NCBI GenBank assembly: GCA_014728225.1
Contig: WJLX01000012.1
Coordinates: forward strand, 591 to 64,590
Length of the DNA: 64,000 bases
Reading direction: 5' to 3'
Origin: Candidatus Coatesbacteria bacterium
GTDB taxonomy: Bacteria > RBG-13-66-14
The notes below the pieces were generated by a model. That model searched no databases. It saw only the letters and a program-made list of their open reading frames with translations, and was not told where the DNA came from. Made by a program: the position numbers and the translations under genes. Below, one piece after another: positions 4,491 through 53,127 of this stretch; the stretch's first letter is position 1, and the number at the start of each line of letters is the position of its first letter.

Positions 4491-4554
4491 CCGTCACATT
4501 TCTTGCACTTGCAACGAACCCTTGGTCGGGTTCGTTGCGCAAGAAATGCGCCGG
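4491..4554. repeat. degenerate relative of the palindromic element (variant K)
   Basis: CACATTTCTTGCACTTGCAACGAACCC ttggtc GGGTTCGTTGCGCAAGAAATGCG. Imperfect hairpin sharing the TTCTTGC / GCAAGAA half-sites. Sits in a ~600-bp spacer. Confidence 0.5.
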
Positions 4555-4933
4555 CCCTCGCTTGTTGCCGGATGGCGGGCGTCCGGCGAGATGCGCGACG
4601 GGCGAGGGGGAGCTCATCGCCCCGGCGGGTATCAGCAGTGTAAGACGTGCTGCTGTGCGGGCGGGTTTATTAGACCCGCCCGCGAACTACCATTGGTAAT
4701 GCCCTGCTGGCGGGCAGACCCTGGCGTGGGCCGCCGTGGATCAGGGTTGGGGGCGGTTCGCCGTTAAGGGGTGACCGGCTGGCTCGCAGAGCCCGCCCGA
4801 CAGGGCTATCGGGTTGCGGCCGGGGCCAGAGGAGTCAGCCCACGCTTCGTCCTGGGTGGTTGATCCGTTCCTTTCTCACCCCGGCCCGTGAACGATCTTC
4901 CTCCCCGGCGGAGAGGGAAACCGATCCGGTGGG

Positions 4934-6766: not shown

Positions 6767-6820
6767 ACGAACTCCATCGCGTTGGTGGTCGAAGGGCGGG
6801 CGGTTGATACCGGAGCAGCG

Positions 6821-7009
6821 CCCGAGAGACCGTTGACGAAACGGCTGCGCGGTCGGGCTCGTCGCGGTCGGAACCGGCACGGTTTTTGCGGAGGCCGACC
6901 GTTAACGTCGGCCGTAACGGTCGCCGAGATGCAAAAACCGTGCCGGTTCCGACCGCCGTGGCGTTGTCGGGTGTCGGCGCGGCGGGCCTTGCGTCAACGG
7001 TCTCTCGGG
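6821..7009. repeat. nested palindromic repeat element, copy B (core 6866..6954, GGAGGC-first orientation)
   Basis: Same 22-bp arms as copy A. Inner hairpin GACCGTTAACG...TAACGGTC. Outer inverted repeat CCCGAGAGACCGTTGACG (6821-6838) / CGTCAACGGTCTCTCGGG (6992-7009). Confidence 0.8.
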
Positions 7010-7026
7010 CGGCGGAGCGGGACGGC

Positions 7027-8286: not shown

Positions 8287-8429
8287 CGCGTCCATTATAG
8301 CACCCCGGACGCCCGGGTCAATGCCGTCGTTGATGCCCCTTGCAGTACCGGCCTCCAATCGGCTATGCTATTAGCCGTCCAGGGTCGATTCTACCGCGAG
8401 TCCCCGGGAGGGCGACTTTGCCGCTGTTC

Positions 8430-11400
8430 ATGTTCACCGACATCCAGGGTTCGACCCGGCTGTGGGAGAAGCACGGCCGGGCGATGGCCGAGATTCTCGA
8501 GCGCCACGACCGCCTGGTGGAGCAGACCGTCACCGAGTTCGGCGGGCGGATCCTCAAGCATCTGGGTGACGGCTTCTTTATCATCTTCAACGAAGGCGGC
8601 GATCCCCTGGGCTGCGCCCTGAGCCTGCAGCGGCGGATCGGCGCGGCGGACTGGAAACCCGTCGGCGATCTGCGGGTGCGCACGGCCCTGCACGCCGGCG
8701 AAGCCGAGCGCCTCGGCGAGGACTATTTCGGTCCGGTGATCAACCGTACGGCCCGGCTCTGCGACGCCGGCTGGGGCGGTCAGATCCTGCTCTCCCCCAG
8801 CGCCGCCGACTACGGACCCCTGCCCGAAGGGGCCGAACTGGTCGAGCTGGGCTCGCACCAGTTGCGCGACCTGGACCGGCCCCAGGAGATCCTGGCCCTC
8901 GACCACCCCGAGCTCCCCCTGCGCAGCTTTCCCGAGCTGCGCACGATGAGCGCCCGACCCAACAACCTGCCGCCCCAGTCGACCCCCTTCGTCGGCCGCG
9001 TCGAGGAGCGCCACGAACTGCACCGGCTCCTCGATAAGGAAGGCGCCCGCCTGCTGACGATCACCGGCCCCGGCGGGATGGGCAAGACCCGTCTGGCCCT
9101 CCAGGTGGCCGCCGAGCGGCTCGACCGCTACGACGACGGCGTCTACTTCGTCCCCCTGGCGCCGCTGGCCGACGTCGAGCAACTGGTCCCCGCCGTCGCC
9201 GAAGCTTTGTCGTACAGCTTTTCGCCCGGCTCGGAGCCCCAGGAGCAGCTGCTCAACTATCTCGAGGGCAAGCGCCTGCTGCTGGTCCTCGACAACTTCG
9301 AGCACCTGACTGCCGGGGTCGAGCTGGTGGCCGATATCAACGAGCGCGCCCCGTCGATTAACGTGCTGGCCACGAGCCGGACCCGCCTCAACCTGCGGGG
9401 CGAGCAGCTCTACACCATCGCCGGCCTGCAATTCCCCCGGCACTGGGAGCCCGCGCCCGAGGATCATTACAGCGCCCTGCACCTGTTCCTGGAGAGCGCC
9501 CGGCGTCTGGAGCCCGACTTCGTCATCACCCCGGACAACGTGCGCCAGGTTATCCGCGTCTGCAGCCTGGTCGGTGGGATGCCCTTGGGGATCGAGCTGG
9601 CGGCCAGTTGGGTGCGCACCCTGGAGCCCGCCGAGATCGTCGAGGAACTCGAGAGCGGGTTGGACTTCCTCGACACCGAGCTGCGCGATCTGCCCGAACG
9701 CCACCGCAGCCTCCTCGGGGTGGTCGACTACTCCTGGCGCCTGCTGAGCGAAGGGGAGCGGACCGTCTTCAGCTCGCTGGCCGTCTTCCGCGGCGGTTGC
9801 GACCGCGCCGCCGCCAAGGCCGTCCTCGGCGTCGGCCCCCGGGAGCTGATGAAGCTGGTGGATAAGTCCCTGCTGGAACGGGGCAGCGACAAACGCTATC
9901 GGATGCACGAAGTGGTGCGCGTCTTCGCCGAGGAGAAACTGGCGGCGGAACCCGAGCGACGGGAGAAGCTGCGCCTGGCCCATGTCGAGTACTTCAACGA
10001 GTTCCTGCAGCGGCGGCGCAAGGGTCTCAGCCGGGAAGAGGGCGCCGCTCTGCAGGAGTGCCGCCGCGAAGCCGACAATCTCAACGCCGCCTACGGTTAC
10101 GCCCTGAACACCGGCGATCGCGAGCTGCTCGCCGATTATCTCGAGGTCTTCTCCGCCTACATCAACGCGACCTACCGCCACCGCGAGCACCTGGAGCTCA
10201 GTCGCCGGGGCCTGGAGGTCCTGCCGCGACGGGACGATCGCGCCGACGGTCTGCTGCTGGCCGCCCAGGCCTCCTCCCTGGCCTCCCTGGGGCGCTACAA
10301 GGAGTCGATCGATTACGCCCGGCGCTCCTACGAGATCTTCGAGAAACTCGACGACGTCAGCAACGCCTACTACGTCATCTACCGCCTCGGCGCGGCCTAC
10401 TTCCGCACCTTTCAGATCGACAAGGCCCGCGAATACTTCATCAAGGCCCTCGAACTGGCTCGACGGCTGGACAGGCCCATGAGTCTGGCCAGCGCGCTGC
10501 TGGCCATCGGCGATATCGAGAACGCCAGCGGCAACCTGCACCAGGGGCTCGAGTACTGCAACGAGGCTCTGGAGATCAACCGCCGCGAGGGCCGCCGGAC
10601 CGGCGTGGTCAACTGCCTGATCACCGTGGCCGACATCTACAACCACCTGGGCGACCTGCGCACCGCCTACGAGCATCACGCCGAGGCCGTGCGCATCGCC
10701 GACGAAATCACCTACCTCCACGGCAGCGCCCTGGGGCGTTCGGCCCTCAGCGAGGTCGGTAACAAATTGCACCGGGGGCGCGTCAACCTCATCACGGCGC
10801 GGCGCTCCCTGGAGTTGTTCCAGGAGATCGGCGATGTCTACTGGCAGAACAACGCCCGCAGCGAGCTGGGCATCGCGCTGACCGACGAGGGCCAATACGA
10901 CGAGGGTCGCAGAATGCTCGATTCGGCGTTGAGCAGCTATCACGAAGAACGCGTCTCTCCGCTGATCGCCTACGTCGAGAGGTATCTGGGTCGACTCGAA
11001 CTCTTCAACGACGATCCCCACGCCGCCCTCGCCCACTTCACCCGCAGCCTCGAGCATTACTCGCTGAAAGAGTACTGGAGGCCCAGGCTGCAGGTGGAAC
11101 TCTACCAGGTCTGGGCCCGTCTCGCCGCCGGAGACAACCGGCGAACGCTCGCCGAGCTGGAGAGTATCGCCGCCGATTTCCACCGCTGCCTGAGCGGCGA
11201 AACCGATGAAAGCGGCGGCGTCATCGGGATCGGCCTGCACACCCTGCGGGGGCTGTCGCTGCGCTCGAGCGGCGCGGACCCGGCTGCAGAGCTTGACGAG
11301 GCCCGCCGCCTGCAGATCGCCGAGGAGAACGGTGAAGTCGACGATTGCGGCCTGCTGCTGGGGCTGGAGTTGTCGAGGGTCCTGCCCATGGACCCCGCCG

Positions 11401-11567
11401 CCCGGCTGATCGCCCGGCTGGCCGACGACGAGCGCACTCCGCGCTATTTCGCCCTCCAAGCCGCCGAGCTGCGCCGGGAACGCGGCATGCCCGTCGTCAA
11501 GCTCGAAGCCCCCGAGGACTACAACCGGGGCTACCAGGCGCTGCTGGCGGAGCTCGCCCGGCCCTGA
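8430..11567 (+). CDS. class III adenylate/guanylate cyclase fused to STAND AAA ATPase and TPR repeats
   Basis: Start at MFTDIQGSTRLWEKHG. Cyclase motifs: FTDIQGST, GDGFF, GPVINRTARL. Walker A ITGPGGMGKTRL; Walker B LLLVLDNFEHL. C-terminal TPR-like repeats. The antisense 1080-aa ORF 8391..11633 is an artefact. Confidence 0.7.
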   Translation: MFTDIQGSTRLWEKHGRAMAEILERHDRLVEQTVTEFGGRILKHLGDGFFIIFNEGGDPLGCALSLQRRIGAADWKPVGDLRVRTALHAGEAERLGEDYFGPVINRTARLCDAGWGGQILLSPSAADYGPLPEGAELVELGSHQLRDLDRPQEILALDHPELPLRSFPELRTMSARPNNLPPQSTPFVGRVEERHELHRLLDKEGARLLTITGPGGMGKTRLALQVAAERLDRYDDGVYFVPLAPLADVEQLVPAVAEALSYSFSPGSEPQEQLLNYLEGKRLLLVLDNFEHLTAGVELVADINERAPSINVLATSRTRLNLRGEQLYTIAGLQFPRHWEPAPEDHYSALHLFLESARRLEPDFVITPDNVRQVIRVCSLVGGMPLGIELAASWVRTLEPAEIVEELESGLDFLDTELRDLPERHRSLLGVVDYSWRLLSEGERTVFSSLAVFRGGCDRAAAKAVLGVGPRELMKLVDKSLLERGSDKRYRMHEVVRVFAEEKLAAEPERREKLRLAHVEYFNEFLQRRRKGLSREEGAALQECRREADNLNAAYGYALNTGDRELLADYLEVFSAYINATYRHREHLELSRRGLEVLPRRDDRADGLLLAAQASSLASLGRYKESIDYARRSYEIFEKLDDVSNAYYVIYRLGAAYFRTFQIDKAREYFIKALELARRLDRPMSLASALLAIGDIENASGNLHQGLEYCNEALEINRREGRRTGVVNCLITVADIYNHLGDLRTAYEHHAEAVRIADEITYLHGSALGRSALSEVGNKLHRGRVNLITARRSLELFQEIGDVYWQNNARSELGIALTDEGQYDEGRRMLDSALSSYHEERVSPLIAYVERYLGRLELFNDDPHAALAHFTRSLEHYSLKEYWRPRLQVELYQVWARLAAGDNRRTLAELESIAADFHRCLSGETDESGGVIGIGLHTLRGLSLRSSGADPAAELDEARRLQIAEENGEVDDCGLLLGLELSRVLPMDPAARLIARLADDERTPRYFALQAAELRRERGMPVVKLEAPEDYNRGYQALLAELARP

Positions 11568-11661
11568 GCCGTCCCGCGGCCCGCCCCGCCCATCCCCGCT
11601 CCCCCGGGGAGCGGTTCGGGGCGGGTAACACACGCCTTACGGCCGTCTACCCAGGCCCCGG

Positions 11662-11721
11662 CGCGGTTATTGCGCAACGCCCCCCGCTGCGGGGGGCGTT
11701 GCCGCGCAAGAACCGTGACGG
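11662..11721. repeat. degenerate relative of the palindromic element (variant J)
   Basis: CGCGGTTATTGCGCAACGCCCCCCGC tgc GGGGGGCGTTGCCGCGCAAGAACCGTGACGG. GC-rich hairpin flanked by GGTTATTGC / GCAAGAACCGTG half-sites. Confidence 0.5.
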
Positions 11722-11791
11722 GGCCGGCGGGCGGCCCGGGGTGGAGCGGGCGGGTTTGCCCCGGGGTGGGCGGGGTAGTACAATCGGCATC

Positions 11792-15305: not shown

Positions 15306-16871
<1,566 letters not shown>

Positions 16872-18289: not shown

Positions 18290-18474
18290 ATTGCCCCCTC
18301 GTCAGTGGCGGGATGACAGACCCGTTCACACCACGGGAAGAACCCAACTGCAATAGCTGATGTTCACCTTCCGTGATGATCCCCTAGATTTACCCCGACC
18401 CATGCCGCTGCTTCCCGCACGGGCGACCGCCTCCGGTCGCCCGTGCTCGATCCGGCACCGACGAGGGCCGGCGC

Positions 18475-18530
18475 GTGTTTTTGCGCCGCCGGACCGGACG
18501 GGTCCGGCGGCGTTGCAAAAACCGTGACGG
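18475..18530. repeat. degenerate relative of the palindromic element (variant D)
   Basis: GTGTTTTTGC GCCGCCGGACC ggac GGGTCCGGCGGCG TTGCAAAAACCGTGACGG. Confidence 0.5.
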
Positions 18531-18542
18531 CCCGGCGCAGCG

Positions 18543-18579
18543 GCGACAATGGTTAAAAAACGACAACGGGTCGGCCCGC
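18543..18579 (-). terminator. intrinsic terminator downstream of ccdA-like gene
   Basis: On the minus strand: CGGGTCGGCgcggGCCGACCCG hairpin followed by TTGTCGTTTTTTAACC. Confidence 0.45.
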
Positions 18580-18613
18580 GCCGACCCGCTGCAACAATAA
18601 CCCGTCGATCGCC

Positions 18614-28200: not shown

Positions 28201-28361
28201 CCGCGAACGACCTCGACGGACGCCAGCCACGCCAGCCCCCCGAGCCGGCACGGTTTTTGCGGAGGCGAACCGTCGCCGTCGCTCCGACGGCCGCCGAGCT
28301 GCAAAAACCGTGCCGGCTCGGGGGGCGAGGTCGAAAGACGGGCCGTCGAGGTCGTTCGCGG
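28201..28361. repeat. nested palindromic repeat element, copy E (core 28236..28326, GGAGGC-first, GAGCCGG variant)
   Basis: Core CCCCCGAGCCGGCACGGTTTTTGC GGAGGC ... GCCGAGCTGC AAAAACCGTGCCGGCTCGGGGGG. Outer inverted repeat CCGCGAACGACCTCGACGG (28201-28219) / CCGTCGAGGTCGTTCGCGG (28343-28361). Confidence 0.8.
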
Positions 28362-30871: not shown

Positions 30872-33800
30872 GTGGATGAGCTGCGGCGCGATCTGGAACG
30901 CTTTCTGCCCCCGGGGCTGGTGCGCTACGCCGTCAGCGACGCCGAGCGCATCGACGCCCTGCAGCGGGAGCTGGGCGTTCTCGAACGCCGCCACCACACC
31001 CTGGCCCTGGCCTGGCCTCTGCGCGGGGTCCTCGAGGGCGGGGGCTTTTTGCTGCCCGGAACGGTGCTGGCCGGCGATGTCGGCGCCCAGGACCACCCGA
31101 CCCACCGGCGGGCCGCCGAGGTGCTGCTGGCGGCCCTCGAGGAGTACAACGGCCGGCTGTTGGCCTGGGGCGCGGGGACCTTCCTGGCCTTCTTCCCCGG
31201 AGTCACCGCCTCGGGCTCCAGCACCCAGGCCAATTATTTTCGCGCCTGCCAGACGGCCAGCGAGATGGCCGAGCTCGAGCTCCCCGGCCTGCGCCAGGCC
31301 TTGACGGCGGGGCGGGGTGGTCTGGTGGTCTGCGCCGCCCTGGAGCGCAAGCTGACCGTGCCCGTCGGTGGAGCCGTCGGCGCGGCCCTGACCCTGACCG
31401 CGGCCGCCGAGCCGGGGACGATCCGCCTGTCGACGACGATGGCCGAGGTGGTCGCCGAGCGCTTCCAGGTCGTCGAGGGCTCCGGCGGTCCCCTGTTGGG
31501 AACCATCCTCTCCGGCCGTCGGGTCAACAAGGCCCTCGTCGAAGACCAGGCCCCCGTGCCGCCCGAGCATCTCCTCGACCGCCTGGCCCAGGCGGCGGCG
31601 GGGATGGAGCGCGCCCGGCCCTGGCTGGCCCCCTGGCAACTCGAGCCCCTGGGCGCCCGCTTCAGCGGACGGCGACCGCTGACCGCCGAGGCCGTCCTGG
31701 CCCTGGCCTGGCCGCCACCGGGCGAATCGGCCAACCGCGGCGCCGCCCTCGAGGAGCGCCTGCGCGTCGAGGCCGAACTCTGCGCCAACTGGGACGGCGA
31801 GCTCTGGGGGTTGGTACCGCACCCCGACGGACTCTGCAGCGCCTACGCCTTCCCCGACGTCCGCGCCGCCGGTGCGGCGGCCCTGGCCGTGCTGGCCGAG
31901 ACCGACGATCGCGGCGGGGCCATCGAGGTCGGCGAACTCTGCGATCATTACCTGCGGGGTCCCCGCTCCTCGGCGGCGGCTCCGGCGGGGAGGGCCTTGC
32001 GTTCGGCCTGCGGTGAGGCCCTGCTGGCCCCGACCGGGGAGCTGGTCTGTCATCCCGCCAGCCGGGACGAGGTCGAGCCGGAATTCGAAATCGTCCGCAG
32101 CCTCGAAGTCGCCGATCGCCCCCTGGCCGTGCTGCGCGCCGCCGCCGAGCGCGAGGAGGCCGGCCGGCCCCTGTTGGGCTGCGGCGAGCTGCTGGAGAAA
32201 ACGGACGCCTGGCTGGAGGAGTTGCGCCGCGGCGGCTCCATCGTCGGCGTGGTCACCGGCGGCCCCGGAGCGGGTAAGAGCCGGGCCTGCCGCGAGCTGC
32301 GCGACCTGTTCGCCGAGCTGGGCGACGCCCACCTGTTCCGTTGCCAATCCTGGTGGGCCTACGATCCCTACAGCCTGTGGCGGCGGACCCTGCTGGCCAT
32401 CTGGGGCCCCCCGGCCAGCACGGCGGCCAACCGGGCCCTGCGCGAGGCCCTCGGCGAGGCGGCCCCGCGCCTGGGCGAGTTCATCAGCCGCTTCACCGGC
32501 GGCGAGCTCTCCGAACCGCTGTGGGGCTTGAGCCCGCGCCAGAAGGGTCAGATGGCCGGCGAGCTGCTGCTGGCCGCCCTGCGCGCCCGCGAGGGCCGAC
32601 CCCTGGCCCTGGTCATCGACGACGCCGACTGGCTCGACGCCGGCAGCCTGCAACTGGTGCGTTCGTTGAGCGCGGCCGGTCTGCCCCTGGCGGTGATCCT
32701 CTGCTGCCGCCGGGCCCCGGAGGAGCTGAGCGCCCAGTACGCCGAACTCCAGCCCCTCGAACCCGACGAAGCCGCCGACCTGTTCGCCGACGCCGCCGGG
32801 CGTCCCGGGCCTTTCATCGAGCGCCTGCCGCGACGGGAGCTGGTACCGGGCAAGCTGTCCCACCTGGCCGCCCTGGCCGCCGCCGGAGCCGATCCGGCCC
32901 TGGGCGCTCGGCTGTCCCTGGAGCGCCTGGGGCAGGAGCTGCTGCGTCTGGAGCCCGACGGCGAGGCGCCGCAACTGGTCTCCGTCCTGGGGCCCCGCTT
33001 CGGCGCCGGGGACCTGGCCGCCGTCACCGACGGGGTCAGCGAGCTGCGCCGCCGGCTCGAATCCAGCCGCCTGCTGGAGCGCAGCGGCGGCGAGTACGCC
33101 TTCCGCGGCCGCGCCGTCTGGCAGGCCGCCTACACCGCCCTGGAACCTCGCCGTCGCCGGGAGCTGCACTTTCGCGCCGCCCGTTTCTACCAGCGCCAGC
33201 ACCGCGGCGTCGTCGCCCAGGCCGTCGCCCACTTCATGAACTGCGGCGATCCCGGTGAGCGGGTCACGGCGCTGGAGCTCGCCGGAGAGCGCGCCGCCGC
33301 CGTCGGCTCCTTCACCGCCGCCCGCCGCTACCTCCGCGAAGCCGTCGCCGCCGCCACCAACCGCCGCGACACCCGCCGCCTGATCGCCAAGCTGGCCGCC
33401 ATCCACACCCACGCCCGCAACTACCCCGAGGCCGACCGGCTCTACGACAACCTGCTCGAGGAGGCCGAGGAAGCCGAGCAGCGCCAGGCCGCCGAGTTGG
33501 CCCTCGATCGCGCCGAGCTCCAACTCGCCGTCGGCGATCCCGAGATGATCGAGCGCTGGGTCGCCCGCGCCGCCGCCCTGGAACCCGAGCTCGATCCACC
33601 GCGCCGGTCCTATCTACTCGGTGAGGCCGCCAAACTGCGCGGCGACGCCGAGGCGGCCCGCGAACATCTGGGTCGGGCCGCCGAAGCGCCCACCCCCGAG
33701 GGCGCCCGGGCCGCCGTCCGCCTCGGTCGACTGCTCCTCGGGGCTGATGAAACCGCCGAGGCTCTGGAATTTCTCCGGCGCGCCGAAGCCTGGGCCCGGC

Positions 33801-35014
33801 AGCAGAGCCATGTGGCCCTGATCGTCGAGGCCGTCCGCCTGGCCGCCGACGCCCACGCCGCCCGCGGCGCCGTCGACGAGGCCCGCGCGGCCCTCGAACA
33901 GGCCCTCGAGCGCGAGCGCGCCCTGCTGCAGGTCCAGCCCGTCGCCGAGACCCTGAGCGCCCTGGCCGATTTCTACGCCGCCGCCGGGGAGCGCCGCCGG
34001 GCCCTCGACTGCCTGACCGAGGCCGAGGCTACCTTCACCCGCCTCGAACTGCCCGTCAAACGCCTCGACGCCCGGGAGCGCCGCGCCGCCGTCAGCGCCG
34101 ACCTGGGCCGGATCGCCGTCGCCCGAGAGATCCTCGAAGAGGTGAGCGTCAAGCGCCGCGGCCTGCGCGACCGTTTCGGCGCCACCCGCTGCGCCCTGCT
34201 CGAGGGCCGCTTGGCCGCCCTGCAGGGTGACTGGCGCACCGCCAACAATGCCTACGACCAGGCCCTCCTCGGCGCCCGCGAGGTCGCCGACGAAGAGCTG
34301 ATCGCCGCCGCCCGACGCGGCCACGCCCACTCGCTGTTACATCAAGGAAGACTCGCCGAGTTCGACGAAAGCCTCGGGGAACTGGAAGCCGCCGAAGCCG
34401 CCTTGCTGAGCGGCGAACTATACCGCCTGCTCTACCTCTTCGACACCGCCGCCCGGGAGCACCGCCGGACCCTCGACGCCGACCCCGACTCCCTCGAACG
34501 CCGCCTGGCCCTGGCCCTCGATCACCTGAGCGCCGGCAACAGCCGGGCCGGAAAGCGCCTGCTCGCCGAAACCGCCTGGCCGCCGGCCCCCAGACTCGAA
34601 CTGGAACTCGATTACCGTCGGGCCCGGGTGCTAGTGACCCTGATCGAACACAAACCCGCCCGGGAAACCGAGCTCCAACGCTACCGCGAGCTGGCCGAAG
34701 GCGCCGACGCCGTCGTCCACCGCGCCCTGGCCGCCAAGGACGCCGCCGCCGGCCTGGTCCTCGACGGTGAACTCGCCGCCGCCCGGGAGCTCATCGACAG
34801 CGCCCTGACCCGCGAACCGCCCGCGATCGTCGGCTGGCAGTTGCAGTTCTTCGCCGGTCTGCTCGCCGGACGCGACGGCGACGCCGACGCCCGCGGCGAG
34901 TTCTTCGGCCAAGCCCTGCGTTCCCTCGAAGACTTCCGCCGCCGCCTGCCCGACGCCGAACTCCAGCGACGCCTCCAGCGCAGCGAAACCTACAACGCCC
35001 TGCGCCGCGGCTGA
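30872..35014 (+). CDS. giant STAND NTPase with N-terminal degenerate (pseudo) nucleotide-cyclase-like domain and extensive TPR repeats
   Basis: GTG start. P-loop VVTGGPGAGKSRACREL near aa 470. N-terminal segments align to class III cyclase motifs but lack the metal-binding Asp residues (TLALAWPL; GRLLAWGAGTFLAFF; GLVVCAALERKLTVPVGGAVGAALTLTAAAEPGTIRLS). About 800 aa of TPR-like helices follow. The antisense 1185-aa ORF is an artefact. Confidence 0.6.
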   Translation: MDELRRDLERFLPPGLVRYAVSDAERIDALQRELGVLERRHHTLALAWPLRGVLEGGGFLLPGTVLAGDVGAQDHPTHRRAAEVLLAALEEYNGRLLAWGAGTFLAFFPGVTASGSSTQANYFRACQTASEMAELELPGLRQALTAGRGGLVVCAALERKLTVPVGGAVGAALTLTAAAEPGTIRLSTTMAEVVAERFQVVEGSGGPLLGTILSGRRVNKALVEDQAPVPPEHLLDRLAQAAAGMERARPWLAPWQLEPLGARFSGRRPLTAEAVLALAWPPPGESANRGAALEERLRVEAELCANWDGELWGLVPHPDGLCSAYAFPDVRAAGAAALAVLAETDDRGGAIEVGELCDHYLRGPRSSAAAPAGRALRSACGEALLAPTGELVCHPASRDEVEPEFEIVRSLEVADRPLAVLRAAAEREEAGRPLLGCGELLEKTDAWLEELRRGGSIVGVVTGGPGAGKSRACRELRDLFAELGDAHLFRCQSWWAYDPYSLWRRTLLAIWGPPASTAANRALREALGEAAPRLGEFISRFTGGELSEPLWGLSPRQKGQMAGELLLAALRAREGRPLALVIDDADWLDAGSLQLVRSLSAAGLPLAVILCCRRAPEELSAQYAELQPLEPDEAADLFADAAGRPGPFIERLPRRELVPGKLSHLAALAAAGADPALGARLSLERLGQELLRLEPDGEAPQLVSVLGPRFGAGDLAAVTDGVSELRRRLESSRLLERSGGEYAFRGRAVWQAAYTALEPRRRRELHFRAARFYQRQHRGVVAQAVAHFMNCGDPGERVTALELAGERAAAVGSFTAARRYLREAVAAATNRRDTRRLIAKLAAIHTHARNYPEADRLYDNLLEEAEEAEQRQAAELALDRAELQLAVGDPEMIERWVARAAALEPELDPPRRSYLLGEAAKLRGDAEAAREHLGRAAEAPTPEGARAAVRLGRLLLGADETAEALEFLRRAEAWARQQSHVALIVEAVRLAADAHAARGAVDEARAALEQALERERALLQVQPVAETLSALADFYAAAGERRRALDCLTEAEATFTRLELPVKRLDARERRAAVSADLGRIAVAREILEEVSVKRRGLRDRFGATRCALLEGRLAALQGDWRTANNAYDQALLGAREVADEELIAAARRGHAHSLLHQGRLAEFDESLGELEAAEAALLSGELYRLLYLFDTAAREHRRTLDADPDSLERRLALALDHLSAGNSRAGKRLLAETAWPPAPRLELELDYRRARVLVTLIEHKPARETELQRYRELAEGADAVVHRALAAKDAAAGLVLDGELAAARELIDSALTREPPAIVGWQLQFFAGLLAGRDGDADARGEFFGQALRSLEDFRRRLPDAELQRRLQRSETYNALRRG

Positions 35015-35017
35015 ACG

Positions 35018-35215
35018 CCGGGAACCTTTGAAAAACGACGCCGGCCCGGCGCGCGGCGTCGGATACGCCCGGCGCCGGAACCGGCACGGTTTTTGCGGAG
35101 GCGCAGCGTGGCCGACGCTCCAACGGGCGCCGAGATGCAAAAACCGTGCCGGTTCCGGCGCCCCGGAGCGCCGCAGCGGCGCGGGCGTAGAGCGCTGTTT
35201 TTCAAAGGTTCCCGG
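35018..35215. repeat. nested palindromic repeat element, copy F (core 35071..35162, GGAGGC-first)
   Basis: Core GGCGCCGGAACCGGCACGGTTTTTGC GGAGGC ... GCCGAGATGC AAAAACCGTGCCGGTTCCGGCGCC. Outer inverted repeat CCGGGAACCTTTGAAAAACG (35018-35037) / CGCTGTTTTTCAAAGGTTCCCGG (35193-35215). Lies between the STAND gene and mutS. Confidence 0.8.
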
Positions 35216-35257
35216 CGGTTGTGCGAATAGGTCAACCCGGCCAAACCAGAGAAACCG

Positions 35258-37888
35258 ATGGCAGCCAAAGACCCCAACGACACACCGATGATGCGCCAGT
35301 ACCGTTCCTTCAAGGAGCGCTACCCGGGCTACCTGCTGCTGTTCCGGATGGGCGATTTCTACGAGACCTTCGGCGACGACGCGGTCACTGTGGCCGAGGC
35401 GCTCTCGATCACCCTGACCAGCCGGGACAAGGGCCGGGAAGACGCCGTCCCCCTGGCGGGCATTCCGATCAAGGCCTTGGATACCTACCTGCCCCGTCTG
35501 CTGCGCCGGGGCTACAAGGTGGCCCTGGCCGAGCAGCTCGAGGATCCGGCCCAGGCCAAGGGTCTCGTTGAGCGCGGCGTGGTGCGGCTCTATACTCAGG
35601 GCACCCTCTTCGAGGAGGAGCTGCTGCCCGACGGCGGGGCCAACTATCTGGCCGCCGTTCATGCCGATCGACGGGGCTTCGGCCTGGCGTTGTGCGAGTT
35701 GTCGACGGGGGAACTGCTGCTGGCGGATTACGCCGGCGGCGAGGCCCGCCGCACCCTGCTGGGGGAGCTGGCCCGCCGGCGGCCGCGGGAGTTCCTGCTC
35801 AGCGAGGCCGCCGGCTTCCTGCGCGATGAGCTGGATTCCGCCGCCGTGACCCTGCGGCCCGCGGGGGATTTCAGCCGCGCCGACGCCGAGCGCCGTCTGC
35901 GGGAGCACTACGGGGTCGGCTCCCTCGAGGGCTACGGAGCCGCCGGGTTCGGCGCCGCCTTGGGGGCCGCCGGGGCCGTGCTGGCCTATCTCGAGGAAAC
36001 CCAGCTCGGCGAGCCGGTCGCCCTGCGGCCGCCGCGTCCCCTGCACGGCGTCTCGAAGTTGCTGCTCGACCGCTCGACGATCGACACCCTGGAGCTGGTC
36101 AGCTCGGCCGGCGACCGCGCCTCGTCCAAGCGCAGCCTGCTGGCCCTGCTGGATCACAGCGCGACGCCGATGGGCCGCCGCTTGCTGCACCGCTGGCTGG
36201 TGGCGCCCCTGGCCCGCCTCGAGCCGATCATGACCCGCCAGGCCGCCGTGGCCGAACTGGCCGAGGATGCCCGGGCCCGCAAGCGCCTCGTCGCGGCCCT
36301 GAGCGGGACGGGCGATCTGGAACGCGCCGTGGGCCGGGCGGCCCACCGGCGGGCCGGAGCCCGGGATCTGGTGCTGATCCGGGAGAACCTGCGCCGGGCG
36401 CCGGAGCTGACGGAGTGGCTGGGGCGGCGCGAGGGCGCCCACTGGTCCGAACTCGGCGCCGGGCTGGAGGAACTGACGGCTCTGCGCGCCCTGCTGGAGC
36501 GCGGCCTGGTCGAGGAGCCGGGGCGGCTGGGTTCCGGGGCGGTGATCGCCCGGGGTTACGACGAGGCCTTCGATCGGGCCCTCGACGAACTCGACGAGGC
36601 CGAGGAGTGGATCCGCAATCTACAGCAAACCGAGCGCGAACGCTCGGGCGTCGACAGCCTCAAGGTGGGCTTCAACAAAGTCTTCGGTTACTATCTCGAG
36701 ATCCCGCGCTCCCGCTCCGACGAGGTTCCCGAGCACTACATCCGCAAGCAGACCCTGGTGGCCGCCGAACGCTTCATCACCCCGGAGCTCAAGGAGAAGG
36801 AGGCGGTCATCACCCGCAGCCGGGAACGGCTGGCCGGTCTCGAGGGGCGGATCTTCCGCCGCCTGCTCGAGGAGGTCGCCGGCTGGGCCGGCCCCCTGGG
36901 CGAGCTGGCCGGCGCCCTGGCCCGTCTCGACGTCATCACCTCCCTGGCGGCGACGGCCGCCGAGCTGGGTTGGTGCCGCCCCGAGATCGACGAGGGTCTG
37001 GTGCTGGAGATCGAGGAGGGCCGGCATCCCCTCGTCGAGCGCCATACCGCCGGGCCCTTCGTCCCCAACGACTGCCGCCTGGACGCCGACGAGCGGCAGA
37101 TCATGCTGCTCACCGGCCCCAACATGGCCGGTAAGTCGACCTACATCCGCCAGCTCGGTTTGGCCGTGGTGCTGGCCCAGGTCGGCTCCTTCGTTCCGGC
37201 CCGACGGATGCGTCTGGGGCTGGTCGACGCCGTCTACACCCGTGTGGGCGCCGCCGACGATATCGCCCGCGGCCTGTCGACCTTCATGGTCGAGATGACG
37301 GAGACGGCGCGGATCGTCAACTGCGCCACGCCGCGCAGCCTGCTGCTCCTCGACGAGGTCGGCCGGGGCACCAGCACCTCCGACGGGGTGGCCATCGCCT
37401 GGGCCGTGGCCGAGCACATCCACAACGCCGGGGGTCTCGGTGCGCGGACCGTCTTCGCCACTCACTACCACGAGCTGACCCGCCTGGTCGAGGAGCTGCC
37501 CCGGGCCTTCAACATGCAGTTGGCGGTCAGCGAGGACGGCGGCGAGGTACGCTTCCTGCACCGTGTCGAACCCGGCGCCGCCCGCACCAGCTACGGCGTC
37601 CACGTCGCCCGCCTGGCCGGACTGCCCCGGGGCGTAGTCCGGCGGGCCCGGGCCCTGCTGCGCCAGTTCGAGAAGGACCGCCTCGGCGCGCCGACGGCCC
37701 AGTTGACCCTGGCGCCGGCCGCGCCCGTCGACAACGAACCCGACTACGCCTGGTTGGCGGCCGAGCTGCGCTCGGCGAACCCCGACGCCCTGACGCCCCT
37801 GGCCGCCCTCAACCTGCTGGCCCAGTGGCGCGGTCGCCTGGAGGCCGACGGCGGCGACGATGAAGGAAATCAGCCCGCCGGCGGGTAG
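35258..37888 (+). CDS. mutS: DNA mismatch repair protein MutS
   Basis: N-terminal TPMMRQYRSFKERYPG...FYETFGDDA. Walker A GPNMAGKSTYIRQ. C-terminal dimerisation region. Confidence 0.9.
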   Translation: MAAKDPNDTPMMRQYRSFKERYPGYLLLFRMGDFYETFGDDAVTVAEALSITLTSRDKGREDAVPLAGIPIKALDTYLPRLLRRGYKVALAEQLEDPAQAKGLVERGVVRLYTQGTLFEEELLPDGGANYLAAVHADRRGFGLALCELSTGELLLADYAGGEARRTLLGELARRRPREFLLSEAAGFLRDELDSAAVTLRPAGDFSRADAERRLREHYGVGSLEGYGAAGFGAALGAAGAVLAYLEETQLGEPVALRPPRPLHGVSKLLLDRSTIDTLELVSSAGDRASSKRSLLALLDHSATPMGRRLLHRWLVAPLARLEPIMTRQAAVAELAEDARARKRLVAALSGTGDLERAVGRAAHRRAGARDLVLIRENLRRAPELTEWLGRREGAHWSELGAGLEELTALRALLERGLVEEPGRLGSGAVIARGYDEAFDRALDELDEAEEWIRNLQQTERERSGVDSLKVGFNKVFGYYLEIPRSRSDEVPEHYIRKQTLVAAERFITPELKEKEAVITRSRERLAGLEGRIFRRLLEEVAGWAGPLGELAGALARLDVITSLAATAAELGWCRPEIDEGLVLEIEEGRHPLVERHTAGPFVPNDCRLDADERQIMLLTGPNMAGKSTYIRQLGLAVVLAQVGSFVPARRMRLGLVDAVYTRVGAADDIARGLSTFMVEMTETARIVNCATPRSLLLLDEVGRGTSTSDGVAIAWAVAEHIHNAGGLGARTVFATHYHELTRLVEELPRAFNMQLAVSEDGGEVRFLHRVEPGAARTSYGVHVARLAGLPRGVVRRARALLRQFEKDRLGAPTAQLTLAPAAPVDNEPDYAWLAAELRSANPDALTPLAALNLLAQWRGRLEADGGDDEGNQPAGG

Positions 37889-39524: not shown

Positions 39525-39536
39525 GCGCCGCCGAGA

Positions 39537-39718
39537 CCCCGGAAAAGGAACCGCCGCCGCGTCTCTAACGACACGGCGCGGGACCGTCGGAACTGGCACG
39601 GTTTTTGCGGAGGCGGACCGTTAGCGTCAGCCGTAACGGCCGCTGAGATGCAAAAACCGTGCCAGTTCCGACGGAGGCGGCGAGCCTTATCAACTCTCGC
39701 GCATTCCCTTTTCCGGGG
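39537..39718. repeat. nested palindromic repeat element, copy G (core 39585..39674, GGAGGC-first, GGAACTGG variant)
   Basis: Core CCGTCGGAACTGGCACGGTTTTTGC GGAGGC ... GCTGAGATGC AAAAACCGTGCCAGTTCCGACGG. Inner GGACCGTTA...TAACGGCC. Outer inverted repeat CCCCGGAAAAGGAA (39537-39550) / TTCCCTTTTCCGGGG (39704-39718). Lies between convergent genes. Confidence 0.8.
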
Positions 39719-39804
39719 TCTCCGCGGCTCGCGCAATAGCCAACCGGGAGGGCTCAGGCCCTCCCGGTTGGCGTACTGGATAACAACTCGGACGCGACGG
39801 GCGT

Positions 39805-41367: not shown

Positions 41368-41580
41368 CCGCGCCGGCGTCAATCCAGACCTGGTTGAAGG
41401 TGGTTTGCGGCGGCTTGGCGATGCGGCCGCCGGAACCGGCACGGTTTTTGCATCTCGGCGACCGTTACTGACGATGATAACGGTTCGCCTCCGCAAAAAC
41501 CGTGCCGGTTCCGGCGGCGCGGTCCAGAGTTGTCGGTGTCGGGTCTCTGGTGGCGGGGTCTGGATTGACGCCGGCGCGGG
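41368..41580. repeat. nested palindromic repeat element, copy H (core 41426..41518, ATCTCGGC-first)
   Basis: Core GCCGCCGGAACCGGCACGGTTTTTGC ATCTCGGC GACCGTTActgacgatgaTAACGGTTC GCCTCC GCAAAAACCGTGCCGGTTCCGGCGGC. Outer inverted repeat CCGCGCCGGCGTCAATCCAGACC (41368-41390) / GGTCTGGATTGACGCCGGCGCGG (41558-41580). Confidence 0.8.
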
Positions 41581-44503: not shown

Positions 44504-44583
44504 CGGCCGCTCCCGTACCACGGCGGCGGTGTCGTCCCTCCGCGGCCGGGGGCCCACCGGGTCTGCCCCCGGCGCGACACCGG

Positions 44584-44648
44584 CCCGGCACGGTTCTTGC
44601 GATGACGACGGACCCGGCCGGGTCCGTCGTCGCAACAACCGCGCCGGG
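44584..44648. repeat. degenerate relative of the palindromic element (variant I)
   Basis: CCCGGCACGGTTCTTGCGATGACGACGGACCCGG CCGGGTCCGTCGTCGCAACAACCGCGCCGGG. Imperfect 31-bp palindrome sharing GGCACGGTTCTTGC with the core arm. Confidence 0.5.
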
Positions 44649-44738
44649 CCTTTGGCTTGGGCGTTGTTCACTGGTGCGGGGCGTTGCAGGGGCTCGGTCG
44701 TCTGTTATAATCAATAGGCAACCGCAGGGGAAACGGCT

Positions 44739-50018: not shown

Positions 50019-50864
50019 TTGGTCCCCAGCTTAAAAAGGCTGCTGGCGGCTCTGCGCCGTCTGCCCGGCATCGGCGCCAAATCCGCCCAGCGCATCGGCT
50101 ACCACCTCCTGCGCGCCGACGACCAACAGAGCCTCGAACTCGCCCGCTCCATCGTCAACCTCACCCGCCGCGTCGGACTCTGCTCCATCTGCGGCAACAC
50201 CGCCGAGGTGGGCCGCAATCAAGAACGGGCCAAGTACGGGGGCCACGCCTTAGAAGACGGACGGACCACCCGCGAAGAACCCACCGACGAGCCGGGCCGC
50301 AATCAAGAACGGGCCAAGTACGGGGGCCACGACTTAGAAGGCGGACGGACCACCCGCGAAGAACCCGCCGGCGAGCCGGGCCGCAATCAGGGGGGGCCGC
50401 ATAATGGGGGCGGATCACCCGCAGAGGCGGATTACGAGACCCCCGACGGCGGCGCGACAAGCCTCGTCTGCGACATCTGCGCCGATCCCGAACGCGACCA
50501 CGGCCGCCTGCTGATCGTCGAGGAACCCTACAACGTCGAGGCCTTCGAGCGCACCGGCGTTTACGACGGCTACTATCACGTCCTGGGGGGCTTGTTCGAT
50601 CCCCTCGCCGGGATCGGCGCCGAGGAGCTGAGCCTCGACCACCTGGTCGTCCGCCTGCGCCGCGGCGCCTATCGCGAGGTCATTCTGGCCACCAGTCCGA
50701 CCTCGGCCGGTGAGGCCACCGCCTCTTATCTGCGGGAACTGCTCGAGCCTCTCGAACTCGAGGTCACCCGCATCGCCGTGGGCCTCTCCGCCGGCGCCGA
50801 CGTCGACTACGCCGACGAGGTCTCCCTGCGCCTGGCCCTCGAGGGACGCCGCCGCTTTAGCTGA
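50019..50864 (+). CDS. recR: recombination protein RecR carrying an ~85-aa low-complexity insertion inside the zinc finger
   Basis: MVPSLKRLLAALRRLPGIGAKSAQRIGYHLL (helix-hairpin-helix). CSICGN ...[insert]... CDICAD. Toprim/C-terminal RecR motifs are intact. Confidence 0.8.
   Translation: MVPSLKRLLAALRRLPGIGAKSAQRIGYHLLRADDQQSLELARSIVNLTRRVGLCSICGNTAEVGRNQERAKYGGHALEDGRTTREEPTDEPGRNQERAKYGGHDLEGGRTTREEPAGEPGRNQGGPHNGGGSPAEADYETPDGGATSLVCDICADPERDHGRLLIVEEPYNVEAFERTGVYDGYYHVLGGLFDPLAGIGAEELSLDHLVVRLRRGAYREVILATSPTSAGEATASYLRELLEPLELEVTRIAVGLSAGADVDYADEVSLRLALEGRRRFS
50211..50392 (+). repeat. in-frame 84-bp tandem repeat (~2.2 copies) inside recR
   Basis: GGCCGCAATCAAGAACGGGCCAAGTACGGGGGCCAC... 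repeated at 50211 and 50295, with a third partial start at 50379. Encodes GRNQERAKYGGH(A/D)LE(D/G)GRTTREEP(T/A)(D/G)EP. Confidence 0.8.
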
Positions 50865-51139: not shown

Positions 51140-51637
51140 ATGGAACACGAACAAAGCGTTGAGCTTTTCGAGGAAGATTATCAAATCATCAACCGCGTGC
51201 TGTCCCGTCTGCTGACGGAGGCCAACGCCCGCATCGTCCTGCTGGTCGACCGCTCCGGGCAGTTGATCAGCTCCCACGGCGACACCTCCAATATGGACTC
51301 CACCGCCTTCGCCAGCCTGTCGGCGGGCAACTTCGCCGCCACCAGCGCCCTGGCGAAGATCCTCGGCCAGGACGAGTTCTCCGTGCTCTTCCACCAGGGA
51401 GAGAAGGAGTCCATCCATATCTCCATCGTCCAGAGTCGGGTCATCCTGGTCATCGTTTTCGACAACCGCACCAGCCTCGGTCTGGTACGGCTGCGGGTCA
51501 AGAAGGCCCTCGAAGAGCTGTCCACCGTCTTCGAGAACATCTTCGCCAAGCTGGGCGCCTCCAGCCAGAGCCGCAGCCTGGACTCCTCCTTCGCCTCGGT
51601 CGCCGAGAGCGAGATCGATAATCTCTTCAAGGACTAA
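51140..51637 (+). CDS. mglB: Roadblock/LC7-domain protein (MglB-like GTPase-activating protein)
   Basis: Roadblock fold hallmarks: VLLVDRSGQLISSHGD...AALSAGNFAA. Located immediately upstream of mglA. Confidence 0.7.
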   Translation: MEHEQSVELFEEDYQIINRVLSRLLTEANARIVLLVDRSGQLISSHGDTSNMDSTAFASLSAGNFAATSALAKILGQDEFSVLFHQGEKESIHISIVQSRVILVIVFDNRTSLGLVRLRVKKALEELSTVFENIFAKLGASSQSRSLDSSFASVAESEIDNLFKD

Positions 51638-51705
51638 CCAGCGGGCGGCGCGTCCGGCTCCAAGCGAACGCCGCCGCTTCTTAAAAGCACGGGGGATGGC
51701 TCTCG

Positions 51706-52299
51706 ATGTCGCTGATCAACTACGCCAATAAGGAGATCAACTGTAAGATCGTCTATTACGGTTGCGGCCTGTGCGGCAAGACGACCAACCTGCTCTACAT
51801 CCACAAGAAGATCGCCGCCGAGTACCGCGGCAAGCTGGTCAGTCTGGCCACCGAAACCGACCGCACCCTGTTCTTCGATTTCCTGCCCCTCGATCTGGGC
51901 AGCATCCAGGGCTTCACCACCCGCTTCCACCTCTACACCGTCCCCGGCCAGGTCCACTACGACGCCTCGCGCAAGCTGATCCTCAAGGGCGTCGACGGCC
52001 TGGTCTTCGTCGTCGACTCCCAGGTCGAACGCATCGAGGACAATATCGAGAGCCTGGAGAACCTCAAGGTCAATCTGCGCAGCCAGGGCTACGAACTCGA
52101 TGACCTGCCCATGGTCGTGCAGTACAACAAGCGCGACCTGCCAAACGTCGTCCCCGTCGAGGAGCTGGAGCGCCAGATCAACCACCGCAACGACCCCAGT
52201 TTCGAATCCATCGCCACCGAGGGCGTCGGCGTCTTCGACACCCTGCGCGCGATCAGCAAGCTCATCCTGGCCAGCATCAGCCAGAAGCAATCCGTCTAG
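51706..52299 (+). CDS. mglA: Ras-like small GTPase MglA
   Basis: MSLINYANKEINCKIVYYGCGLCGKTTNLLYI...TETDRTLFFDFLPLDLG...FHLYTVPGQVHYDASRKLILKGVDGLVFVVDSQ...QYNKRDLPN. Near-identical motif-for-motif to the Myxococcus MglA sequence as I remember it. Confidence 0.9.
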   Translation: MSLINYANKEINCKIVYYGCGLCGKTTNLLYIHKKIAAEYRGKLVSLATETDRTLFFDFLPLDLGSIQGFTTRFHLYTVPGQVHYDASRKLILKGVDGLVFVVDSQVERIEDNIESLENLKVNLRSQGYELDDLPMVVQYNKRDLPNVVPVEELERQINHRNDPSFESIATEGVGVFDTLRAISKLILASISQKQSV

Positions 52300-52506
52300 T
52301 CTTTTCATCCAGGCGACTCCGGCGACGTCCGTCGGGGAGGTAACCCGTTCCCGATGCTGGAAGAGGCACCACCCGTCCTGCGCTGAAACACTGGGGTGGA
52401 TGGCCGCCCTTCCGGCCTCTTTACGCCGGACAACCGACGACCGTCAGCGTCCGTTACGCGCCGCCGAGCAACCCCAAACCCGACCGGAAGCCAACCACCG
52501 CCGACC

Positions 52507-53127
52507 ATGCCCTTCGATGGAGACTTAAAGGATTTCGCCCTGCCCGACATCCTGCAGATGCTGCAGATGGGTAAGCGCACCGGCGCCCTGTCGATCCGGC
52601 GCGGTGAGGATATCGGCACCCTCTACTTCCGCAAGGGCGAACTCGTCCACGCCACCTTCGCCAACATGACCGGCGAGGATGCCGCCTACGCGCTGTTGAA
52701 ATGGAAGAACGGCCGCTTCCGCTTCGACACCACCATCTATCCCACCCGGCGGACCATCGACATCTCCGCCACCAATCTGATTCTGGAATCGGCGCGGCGC
52801 TCCGATGAGCTGCGCGACCTGCAGACCGAGCTGCCGCCGCCGGACACCGTGCTGACCTTCGCCAAGGTCGAGGGCGCCCACGACGATATTCACCTCTCGC
52901 CCCAGCAGTGGAAGGTCCTGGCCCTGATCGACGGCGCGCGCACCATTACCGAGATCTGCGCCGTCTCGGACCAGGATGAGGTCACCGTGCTGCAGACCCT
53001 CGAGGAGATGATCAATATCGGCCTGGTCAGGCGGGTCGGGGATAACGCGGCGGGCGAGGAGGAGATCGACCTCGACGAGGAAATCGGCGCCCCCGACGAT
53101 GACTGGGACCGTCCGCCGGGCTCCTGA
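52507..53127 (+). CDS. DUF4388-domain protein downstream of mglA
   Basis: MPFDGDLKDFALPDILQMLQMGKRTGALSIRRGEDIGTLYFRKGELVHA matches the DUF4388 N-terminal signature. Acidic C-terminus. Confidence 0.55.
   Translation: MPFDGDLKDFALPDILQMLQMGKRTGALSIRRGEDIGTLYFRKGELVHATFANMTGEDAAYALLKWKNGRFRFDTTIYPTRRTIDISATNLILESARRSDELRDLQTELPPPDTVLTFAKVEGAHDDIHLSPQQWKVLALIDGARTITEICAVSDQDEVTVLQTLEEMINIGLVRRVGDNAAGEEEIDLDEEIGAPDDDWDRPPGS

Follow-up and report, generated by a model that had tools for sequence, protein, structure and literature searches.

A dispersed family of nested palindromic repeats in Candidatus Coatesbacteria whose arms match the sigma-54 promoter consensus

Short palindromic repeats lying between bacterial genes have been described in several forms. 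REP/RAYT systems are mainly proteobacterial. Elements of the REP, BIME and REPIN kind are extragenic, occur in many copies and consist of inverted conserved units around a variable spacer, the whole forming a hairpin; changes in their stems are compensated, they leave no target-site duplication, they are abundant in particular lineages, and any enzyme that acts on them is not adjacent. Co-transcribed Correia elements (CREE) of Neisseria fold into hairpins that are processed. These small palindromic repeats also carry promoters into intergenic regions (reviewed in PMC10969869). We have analysed a family of nested palindromes in a 64,000-nucleotide stretch of a Candidatus Coatesbacteria genome (contig WJLX01000012.1 of assembly GCA_014728225.1, positions 591 to 64,590; hereafter the window, to whose numbering our coordinates refer), of which the element at 35016-35217, between a STAND ATPase gene and mutS, is the focal copy. 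The family resembles REP-type elements in every trait just listed and Correia elements in being a small palindrome which apparently brings promoters into intergenic regions. We suggest that it is a dispersed REPIN- or Correia-like nested palindrome in which the arms, facing each other, are consensus sigma-54 promoters or binding sites for sigma-54 holoenzyme, a reading to which we would give about an even chance. Comparison contigs are numbered L001 onwards; L001 and L002 belong to related Coatesbacteria metagenome-assembled genomes (MAGs), L004-L008 to one metagenome, and L018-L020 to the same species as the window.

The main form of the element, type A, is present in seven copies in the window. 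A pattern scan with the 22-bp arm CCGGAACCGGCACGGTTTTTGC that allowed up to 3 mismatches returned 14 matches with 0-2 mismatches each, all of them intergenic and arranged as seven inverted pairs separated by 40-42 nt; no arm pair was expected by chance (100 shuffles of the window), and core arms are never single within the window. Where arms vary (TCGG.., ..AACTGG.. or CCCGAGCC..), the complementary change is present in the partner arm of the same copy. The inner segment is asymmetric, its two sides reading GGAGGC and GCCGAG(A/C)T; in co-oriented copies it reads ATCTC, GGCG, a variable apex, CGCC and TCC, and the apical stem GACCGTTA/TAACGGTC is found in 4 of the 7 copies. Most of this had been described in the original prediction, made from the sequence of the window, and it stands: all 14 arms lie where it had placed them, the same variants occur on both arms of a copy, the asymmetric GGAGGC / GCCGAG(A/C)TGC segment and the inner stem of four copies are as it described, and the elements do create spurious open reading frames with shared peptides (RNRHGFC/RNWHGFC and QKPCRF/QKPCQF). 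They also sit, as it said, between convergent (copies 1 and 6), divergent (copy 3) and tandem genes (copies 2, 4, 5 and 7) alike. Its statement that they never overlap a real coding sequence holds for genes supported by third-codon-position G+C (GC3), the sole exception being one nucleotide of a stop codon, at 2437. Its account of the family was right for the core and missed the outer inverted repeats, four shorter relatives and the sigma-54 consensus within the arms, all of which are set out below.

Around every core lies a second, outer inverted repeat, the sequence of which differs from copy to copy. It contains a perfect run of 16-23 bp in all seven window copies (copy 6 reaches 22 bp with one mismatch), its arms are separated by 123-166 nt, and the full type A unit measures 161-212 bp; these copy-specific flanks explain why a span of about 200 bp (35018-35215) had been assigned to the focal copy. 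The spacers between outer and core arms, 19-45 nt long, are not mutually complementary and are unrelated among copies (58% identity vs 56% when shuffled). Pairwise identity is 93-94% in the arms, 77% in the inner segment and 55% in the outer arms. Type A units fold at -128 to -151 kcal/mol on either strand, and the focal copy folds at -150 kcal/mol (z about -10 against shuffles, both strands). A strand asymmetry is universal: in 15 of 15 copies scored the loop has A at one side and G at the opposite side, and two extra copies past the window end have the same pattern.

The focal copy, copy 5, is a complete nested palindrome: its core arms enclose the inner segment and are themselves enclosed, beyond a spacer on each side, by the outer arms. 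Its left outer arm CGCCGGGAACCTTTGAAAAAC (35016-35036) starts 1 nt past the stop codon of the STAND ATPase gene and is complementary at 21 of 21 positions to the right outer arm GTTTTTCAAAGGTTCCCGGCG (35197-35217), which lies 40 nt upstream of the mutS start. The left core arm (35075-35096, plus strand), which we call the G side because the next base is G, carries the sigma-54-type element CGGCACGGTTTTTGC directed rightwards to the centre, with GG at 35083-35084 and GC at 35095-35096. It is followed by the asymmetric inner segment of 40 nt (35097-35136), made up of GGAGGC, a variable apical hairpin and GCCGAGAT, and by the right core arm or A side (TTGCATCTC; 35137-35158, minus strand), which carries the same element directed leftwards. 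The left outer-arm motif CTTTGAAAAAC(AGCC) of copy 5 recurs in copies 1 and 3, in a ninth copy (L018:17470-17662) and on L005, L007 and L008. These copies, with copy 5, form a subfamily that has in common the outer-arm motif CTTTGAAAAACAGCC, placed about 40-55 nt upstream of the GG.

The arm contains GG-N10-GC in the form (T/C)GGCACGGTTTTTGC(A/G), which is the -24/-12 pattern of sigma-54 promoters. The spacing of GG and GC is exactly 10 nt, with GGCACGGTTTTTGC, in all 14 window arms and in copies from other genomes; of 16 copies from at least three genomes, 15 have the 14-mer unchanged amid variable flanks, the exception (L001b) being the type C allele described below. This 14-mer is the core of the consensus TTGGCACGGTTTTTGCT of 110 predicted Geobacter sulfurreducens RpoN promoters (PMC2725144) and of the Escherichia coli site AGGGCACGGTTTTTGCA identified by chromatin immunoprecipitation sequencing of sigma-54 (PMC4591121), with 14 of 14 nucleotides identical to each, and a full-text search of eight million papers found the exact 14-mer only in these two sigma-54 studies. 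The arm also agrees with the extended consensus TGGCACG-N4-TTGCW. On a matrix built from 29 Salmonella sigma-54 sites (PMC3844500), A-side arms score 13.4-20.5 bits and G-side arms 7.6-14.6 bits, against 16.4-28.7 bits for the training sites, and the A-side arm always outscores its partner. Both arms point inward, so that each element amounts to a convergent pair of predicted promoters. The T-rich spacer that the arms have beside the GC is typical of tight-binding sigma-54 sites such as nifH-type promoters.

Other arm alleles preserve the same core. The type C allele GGCGTTGGCACGTTTCTTGC occurs on L001 (L001:6893-7080), where type A and type C are together in one genome, and at L011:1-30 and L012:1-16, upstream of a cupin gene at the site orthologous to window copy 4; both of the latter are Logan contigs that break inside the element. 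L014 has yet another allele, GGCACAGTTTTTGC. Both alleles share with type A little beyond GGCAC-N5-TTGC, differing in the upstream 8 nt and in the spacer, and in both the paired arms of a copy change jointly. In three relatives (L010:18174-18188, L014:14686-14700 and L015 about 13240, all on the minus strand) a solo site, TGGCA(C/T)TTTTTTTGC, forms an invariant island in otherwise diverged DNA; it is about 95 nt upstream of one and the same Bac_transf sugar-transferase gene and just upstream of a conserved TTGAC...TATATT sigma-70-like promoter; its conservation there suggests that the lineage uses sigma-54. In L010 the flanks of this site (GTTGGCAC...TTGCAGCAG) resemble the type C arm.

The pairing of the arms is strict. 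In the core stem, 98.9% of cells are paired and only one of about 350 is G-U; 12 of the 25 pairs are changed on both sides and one shows a one-sided (wobble) change, and a tally of concerted changes in the arms gives 27 double changes vs one single. Neither any of 500 shuffles nor any slid register reached the observed covariation; the compensated symmetry that had been predicted is supported. The outer stems, which over every copy measure 13-23 bp, are perfectly Watson-Crick though their sequences differ among copies. Strict Watson-Crick change on both sides fits a constraint at the level of DNA, or of both strands, better than one acting on a single RNA strand. Two pairs of copies also share spacer motifs, GCGCGAG(AG)TTGATA(A)GG in copies 1 and 6 and CCGACACC(C)GACAAC in copies 2 and 7, and each motif, upstream of the A side in one member of the pair, is upstream of the G side in the other member. 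Since the motif is on opposite sides in both informative pairs, the inner segment appears to flip relative to its flanks. Hairpin loops bounded by inverted repeats are known to flip, and template-switch correction of quasi-palindromes is a known mutational process. The complementarity of arm to arm, in core and outer stems alike, probably arises from hairpin-templated correction, from selection for pairing on two strands, or from both.

The copies are real repeats and not artefacts, because independent assemblies agree on them and short contigs break in their arms. The same species has been assembled independently four times (JGI Ga0153774, NCBI GCA_054921935.1 and the ENA microbial-mat assemblies ERZ922771 and ERZ922774), at 99.6-99.9% identity to the window, and copies 4-7 are in place in all four. 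Two positions within the elements depart from the window sequence: one assembly has a change in copy 4, and the remaining three have one in copy 5. At window position 28299, in copy 4, another assembly (L024) has A for C, which restores the consensus GAGATGC (TTGCATC on the A side). The 22-bp arms of copies 5, 6 and 7 (in copy 7, the left arm) contain the ends of Logan contigs of the species, and short contigs confirm the unique flanks of copies 6 and 7. Two further full copies lie beyond the window end on same-species contigs (L018:15485-15667 and L018:17470-17662).

Beyond this species the searches found few copies. Among genome contigs the strict pattern was found only on L001 and L002, at one shared locus of two MAGs that are 93-96% identical over aligned segments, and among metagenomes on five real contigs (L004-L008); the two-tier architecture recurs in these outside copies. 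Two more metagenome matches (L003 and L009) were rejected as low-GC chance palindromes that have no GG. A tblastx comparison intended to calibrate divergence found no genes common to L001-L008 and the window. No element separates the STAND ATPase gene from mutS in relatives whose MutS is 67-74% identical: the two genes either share 4 nt or leave a gap of at most 32 nt. Five relatives show such an empty junction, and in the window the gap is about 243 nt. The tight, empty junction of the relatives indicates that the focal copy was gained in this lineage. These relatives hold few elements: L010 has none over 22.7 kb, and L014, L015 and L017 carry a single one apiece, placed upstream of the STAND ATPase gene. 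Upstream of that gene L010 has a tandem repeat, AACCGAGCTATGCCCCCGGCA (L010:5640-5740), at the place where the three other relatives have a palindromic element.

All of this is consistent with a non-autonomous repeat family dispersed within one Candidatus Coatesbacteria species, the functional core of which would be two consensus sigma-54 promoters set head to head with about 40 nt between them. The holoenzyme of sigma-54 and RNA polymerase would bind at each of the 22-bp arms. With starts at the 12 nt usual for such promoters, the start sites in copy 5 are predicted near 35108 (plus strand) and 35125 (minus strand); lying about 18 nt apart on opposite strands, they would allow only one polymerase at a time to open the DNA. 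An enhancer-binding ATPase would then fire a transcript which leaves through the opposite arm into the adjoining DNA, and because either arm could send a transcript outward the unit would work alike in both orientations. Read-through RNA from neighbours, or extruded single strands, may in turn fold into the hairpin of -128 to -151 kcal/mol.

Several observations weigh against this proposal. Of the 14 predicted promoters only 6 face a gene in its sense orientation, convergent genes flank copies 1 and 6, and the neighbours are housekeeping genes (mutS, tgt, a peptidase), which is atypical of a sigma-54 regulon. Unlike ordinary sigma-54 promoters, these sites are perfect face-to-face pairs inside a multi-copy palindrome and have no consistent relation to gene starts; no upstream activator motif is common to all copies. 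No gene for rpoN or for an enhancer-binding protein (GAFTGA motif, RpoN box) was found in the window or the fetched loci, the search for these and for transposases having covered 0.9 Mb of mostly viral contigs. If the density of the window held genome-wide, hundreds of strong sites would make a heavy sigma-54 sink. Finally, the same-species assemblies, at about 99.8% identity, show no presence/absence difference and no loop-flip polymorphism, and so give no sign of current mobility.

A further difficulty comes from four shorter, degenerate relatives, type B, detected in the window by a less strict search and by a covariance model of 14 copies. In each, GGCC stands at both ends and a pair of arms related to those of type A encloses a perfect G+C-rich hairpin peculiar to the copy; the arms satisfy the GG-N10-GC rule only in part. 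The first (4488-4557; covariance model E 0.02) has arms GTCACATTTCTTGC and GCAAGAAATGCGCC with GGCC at both ends, and the second (11646-11733; E 0.004) has arms GGCGCGGTTATTGC and GTCACGGTTCTTGC. The third (18456-18540; arms GGCGCGTGTTTTTGC and GTCACGGTTTTTGC) is just downstream of a canonical terminator at 18563-18592, and the fourth (44573-44659; arms GGCACGGTTCTTGC and GGCGCGGTTGTTGC; E 1e-4) is downstream of proS and its canonical terminator. Together with the nine type A copies they make 13 elements in about 68 kb. Positions that sigma-54 contacts are repeatedly altered in type B arms (GTCAC in one arm, GGCGC in the other), and one arm has an 11-nt spacing in the window element 18456-18540 and in L015 and L017. 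The whole arm pair of that element recurs in L015 (about 889-1013) and L017 (about 1674-1799), so that an identical pair occupies different loci of different genomes. These changes, the spacing and the recurrence imply that some factor other than a canonical promoter function maintains at least the type B subfamily.

Alternatively, the family could be a purely selfish, REPIN-like element whose arm hairpin is recognised on single-stranded DNA by a single-copy transposase encoded elsewhere (of the RAYT or IS200/IS605 kind, or of another type), its likeness to sigma-54 promoters being incidental or secondary. We regard this, the main rival, as doubtful. In its favour, the copies are exclusively intergenic and lie between genes of every relative orientation, they abound in one lineage and are rare in its relatives or missing from them, they combine conserved, compensated arms with a variable loop, they have no target-site duplications, and contigs of other assemblies break in their arms; moreover, the universal A/G strand asymmetry and the conserved mismatches of type B are of the sort used by strand-specific hairpin-binding enzymes. 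However, the arm matches an independent sigma-54 consensus at 14 of 14 positions, spacer included, which is very unlikely by chance (about 1e-7 for one arm), and the different arm alleles share the sigma-54 core and little else. A selfish origin also leaves the outer stems unexplained, a second, copy-specific tier that REP and REPIN elements do not have. In addition, the arm CCGGAACCGGCACGGTTTTTGC has no internal dyad and no GTAG-type tetranucleotide at its foot and so falls outside the definition of a REP unit, and the host belongs to a candidate phylum of the FCB group and not to the Proteobacteria. The neighbouring IS200/IS605 or IS110 transposase that had been proposed as a check was not found among about 45 annotated window genes, no Y1_Tnp (RAYT) domain was present in these or in genes called in related loci, and no Y1 or other transposase gene was found in the 68 kb.

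Other mobile families resemble the element less. [quoted passage not shown] However, no direct repeat that could be a target-site duplication flanks any of 14 copies, there is neither whole-length similarity nor conservation of the termini (outer arms 55%, spacers 58%, shuffled 56%), and no parent insertion sequence was found, in keeping with the earlier view that this is not a conventional MITE. The promoters of Correia elements are of the sigma-70 type, and these elements also have terminal repeats of 26 bp that are conserved, a duplicated TA and a site for integration host factor (IHF), whereas the Coatesbacteria element is conserved centrally, has copy-specific termini and carries predicted promoters of the sigma-54 class. 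The ends CCGGAAC/GTTCCGG share only AAC/GTT with the RYYYAAC/GTTRRRY of integron attC sites, and the copies are scattered among housekeeping genes with no integrase found among the window genes. As the original prediction had supposed, no catalogued family matched: there was no Rfam match at the gathering threshold in the whole window, only generic hairpin matches such as a miRNA precursor at 32.6 bits (threshold 150), and no similarity in plasmid or phage collections.

A second alternative, which we consider unlikely, is that the element acts mainly at the level of RNA, as a hairpin of about 200 nt in read-through transcripts that serves as a 3'-end stabiliser, an RNase III site, or an insulator or terminator. 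Folds on both strands are extremely stable, 4 of the 7 window copies begin 0-2 nt from a stop codon, the A-tract/T-tract outer arms of one subfamily resemble a bidirectional terminator, and the focal insertion split what had been a tight STAND ATPase-mutS gene pair. Against this, the order in the core is TTTTTGC, hairpin, GCAAAAA on both strands, that is, a T-run before the hairpin and an A-run after it, which is not the order of an intrinsic terminator. Canonical terminators exist separately from the elements (2168-2185 by copy 1, 18563-18592, and just after proS), and their adjoining copy 1 and two type B copies indicates that the elements are not needed for termination. Copy 3 lies between divergent genes, where no transcript ends, the near absence of G-U pairs from the core and the perfect outer stems are atypical of stems selected as RNA, and the invariance of the arm sequence is left unexplained. 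Of the roles proposed at the outset, a bidirectional terminator is thus contradicted, and for a structured-RNA gene nothing specific speaks, the pairing being almost exclusively Watson-Crick on both strands.

Still less likely, in our judgement, is a palindrome bound by some other DNA-binding protein (a nucleoid organiser, or an uptake or partition signal), or a sink for sigma-54 holoenzyme that does not transcribe. Invariant arms do imply sequence-specific recognition, and of the roles first proposed a protein-binding palindrome came closest to what we find, although the consensus -24/-12 element of the arm had not been recognised. Most sigma-54 holoenzyme sites in E. coli are transcriptionally inactive (PMC4591121). 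On the other hand, there is no known candidate protein, the arms differ from uptake sequences in never being single in the window, and in E. coli bound sigma-54 holoenzyme was not observed to repress transcription as a roadblock (PMC4591121). A generic sigma-54-core palindrome (TGGCAC-N5-TTGC pairs) was found in 66 viral contigs (L030-L095, IMG/VR), against 1 for a composition-matched control, which adds some weight to recognition by another protein. These viral arrays differ from the window elements in having 7-13 TGGCAY-N5-TTGC sites within 200-900 bp, in alternating orientation and with variable spacers, and they look more like operator or iteron arrays than promoters, although sigma-54 promoters and decoys are also candidates for their function. 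One of them (L095:3199-3470) lies between a terminase-containing gene block and a divergent block.

A variant of the sigma-54 proposal, which we regard as a long shot, is a structure-gated promoter. The Frpo/ssi sequences of conjugative plasmids are long imperfect hairpins in which the stem rebuilds a duplex promoter with a mismatch bubble at the melting region. In the Coatesbacteria element the -12 GC is exactly where the stem stops and a conserved unpaired loop follows, a likeness that we treat as a lead only. The arm stem of a cruciform or single-stranded element would rebuild a duplex -24/-12 promoter ending at that GC, the single-stranded state coming from the lagging-strand template, repair or transfer. 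The conserved unpaired bases (an A-C mismatch, then ATCTC opposite TCC) might then form a ready-made fork junction, at which holoenzyme could bind very tightly or even start transcription with no enhancer-binding ATPase. If so, transcription or priming at many intergenic sites would be tied to DNA topology or replication. Frpo/ssi sequences, in contrast, are of the sigma-70 class, lie in plasmid leading regions and act on transferred single strands, whereas the Coatesbacteria elements are chromosomal, symmetric and multi-copy. That the copies are instead products of misassembly or of a chimeric metagenome bin can practically be dismissed, because, although assemblers are often misled by repeats and the arms are indeed where Logan contigs break, the same elements stand in the same places in four independent long assemblies.

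Should the arms bind sigma-54 holoenzyme, this would be the first repeat family known to us that spreads sigma-54 promoters, and it would do so in symmetric pairs that are independent of orientation; literature searches combining sigma-54 with repeats found no published family of this kind. With about one copy per 5-9 kb, a genome of a few Mb would hold hundreds of consensus sites, and its intergenic landscape would then be largely wired to one sigma factor and its activators or would constitute a large sink. The family is also a clean natural case of concerted evolution of hairpin arms in a little-known candidate phylum. Even if sigma-54 is uninvolved, it would still be a well-defined new REPIN-like family, of help in binning and strain typing and in explaining breaks in Coatesbacteria contigs.

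The remaining type A copies of the window are distributed as follows. Copy 1 (2235-2437, core 2289-2382) lies between convergent genes, and the last base of its right outer arm is the first of a stop codon. Copy 2 (6819-7011, core 6864-6956) is between tandem minus-strand genes, upstream of an M28 peptidase gene, and copy 3 (15369-15569, core 15411-15511), both arms of which are TGGCACGG, separates the divergent DsrE-like and tgt genes. Copy 4 (28201-28361, core 28235-28326), between DUF2062 and cupin genes, has the arm variant CCCGAGCC. Copy 6 (39527-39728, core 39584-39674) is between convergent genes and starts 2 nt past the stop codon of an HD-domain gene, and copy 7 (41368-41579, core 41426-41518) is again between tandem minus-strand genes.

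Several other readings of the element were considered and dropped. Insertion of the core into a pre-existing palindrome was rejected for the CTTTGAAAAACAGCC subfamily because no solo outer-arm motif occurs apart from the elements. It was also conceivable that each half is a small sigma-54-driven RNA gene that ends in a spacer hairpin and an outer-arm T-run terminator, but the arrangement is inconsistent across copies, being plausible only for copy 5 and one side of copy 1. Comparison of the spacers with the rest of the collected sequence gave only chance-level matches and no sign of their acquisition from elsewhere. A small peptide (Shine-Dalgarno-like GGAGG ... ATG-CAA-AAA-CCG) was rejected, the ATG being CTG or GTG in some copies and conservation not extending beyond the arm. 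To detect spurious reading frames called over other copies, concatenated translations of the four open frames across the core were compared with a collection of 5.8 billion proteins; this gave 193 shared-word candidates and none at E <= 10.

The surrounding genes offer some further observations. A type IX secretion system (T9SS) sorting domain and a PorV gene fit an organism of the FCB group. The product of mutS (35258-37888) is 100% identical to a protein whose name assigns it to a Candidatus Coatesbacteria MAG and 62-74% identical to MutS of a small Coatesbacteria group, the next-best MutS reaching only 43-49%; these next-best relatives include many proteins from archaeal MAGs (Thermoplasmata, Methanolobus, Methanoperedens). 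Two very large STAND-type NTPase/TPR proteins are encoded at 8340-11567 and 30872-35014, the first with an N-terminal adenylate/guanylate cyclase domain. An 84-bp tandem repeat (50198-50389; 2.3 copies, 93% identity) marks the place where contigs of three other same-species assemblies end. Finally, a Roadblock/LC7 gene is followed at 51140-53127 by genes for an Arf-like small GTPase and a PatA_N protein (the last two names taken from the same-species contigs L018-L020), an arrangement which resembles an MglA/MglB-type polarity module.

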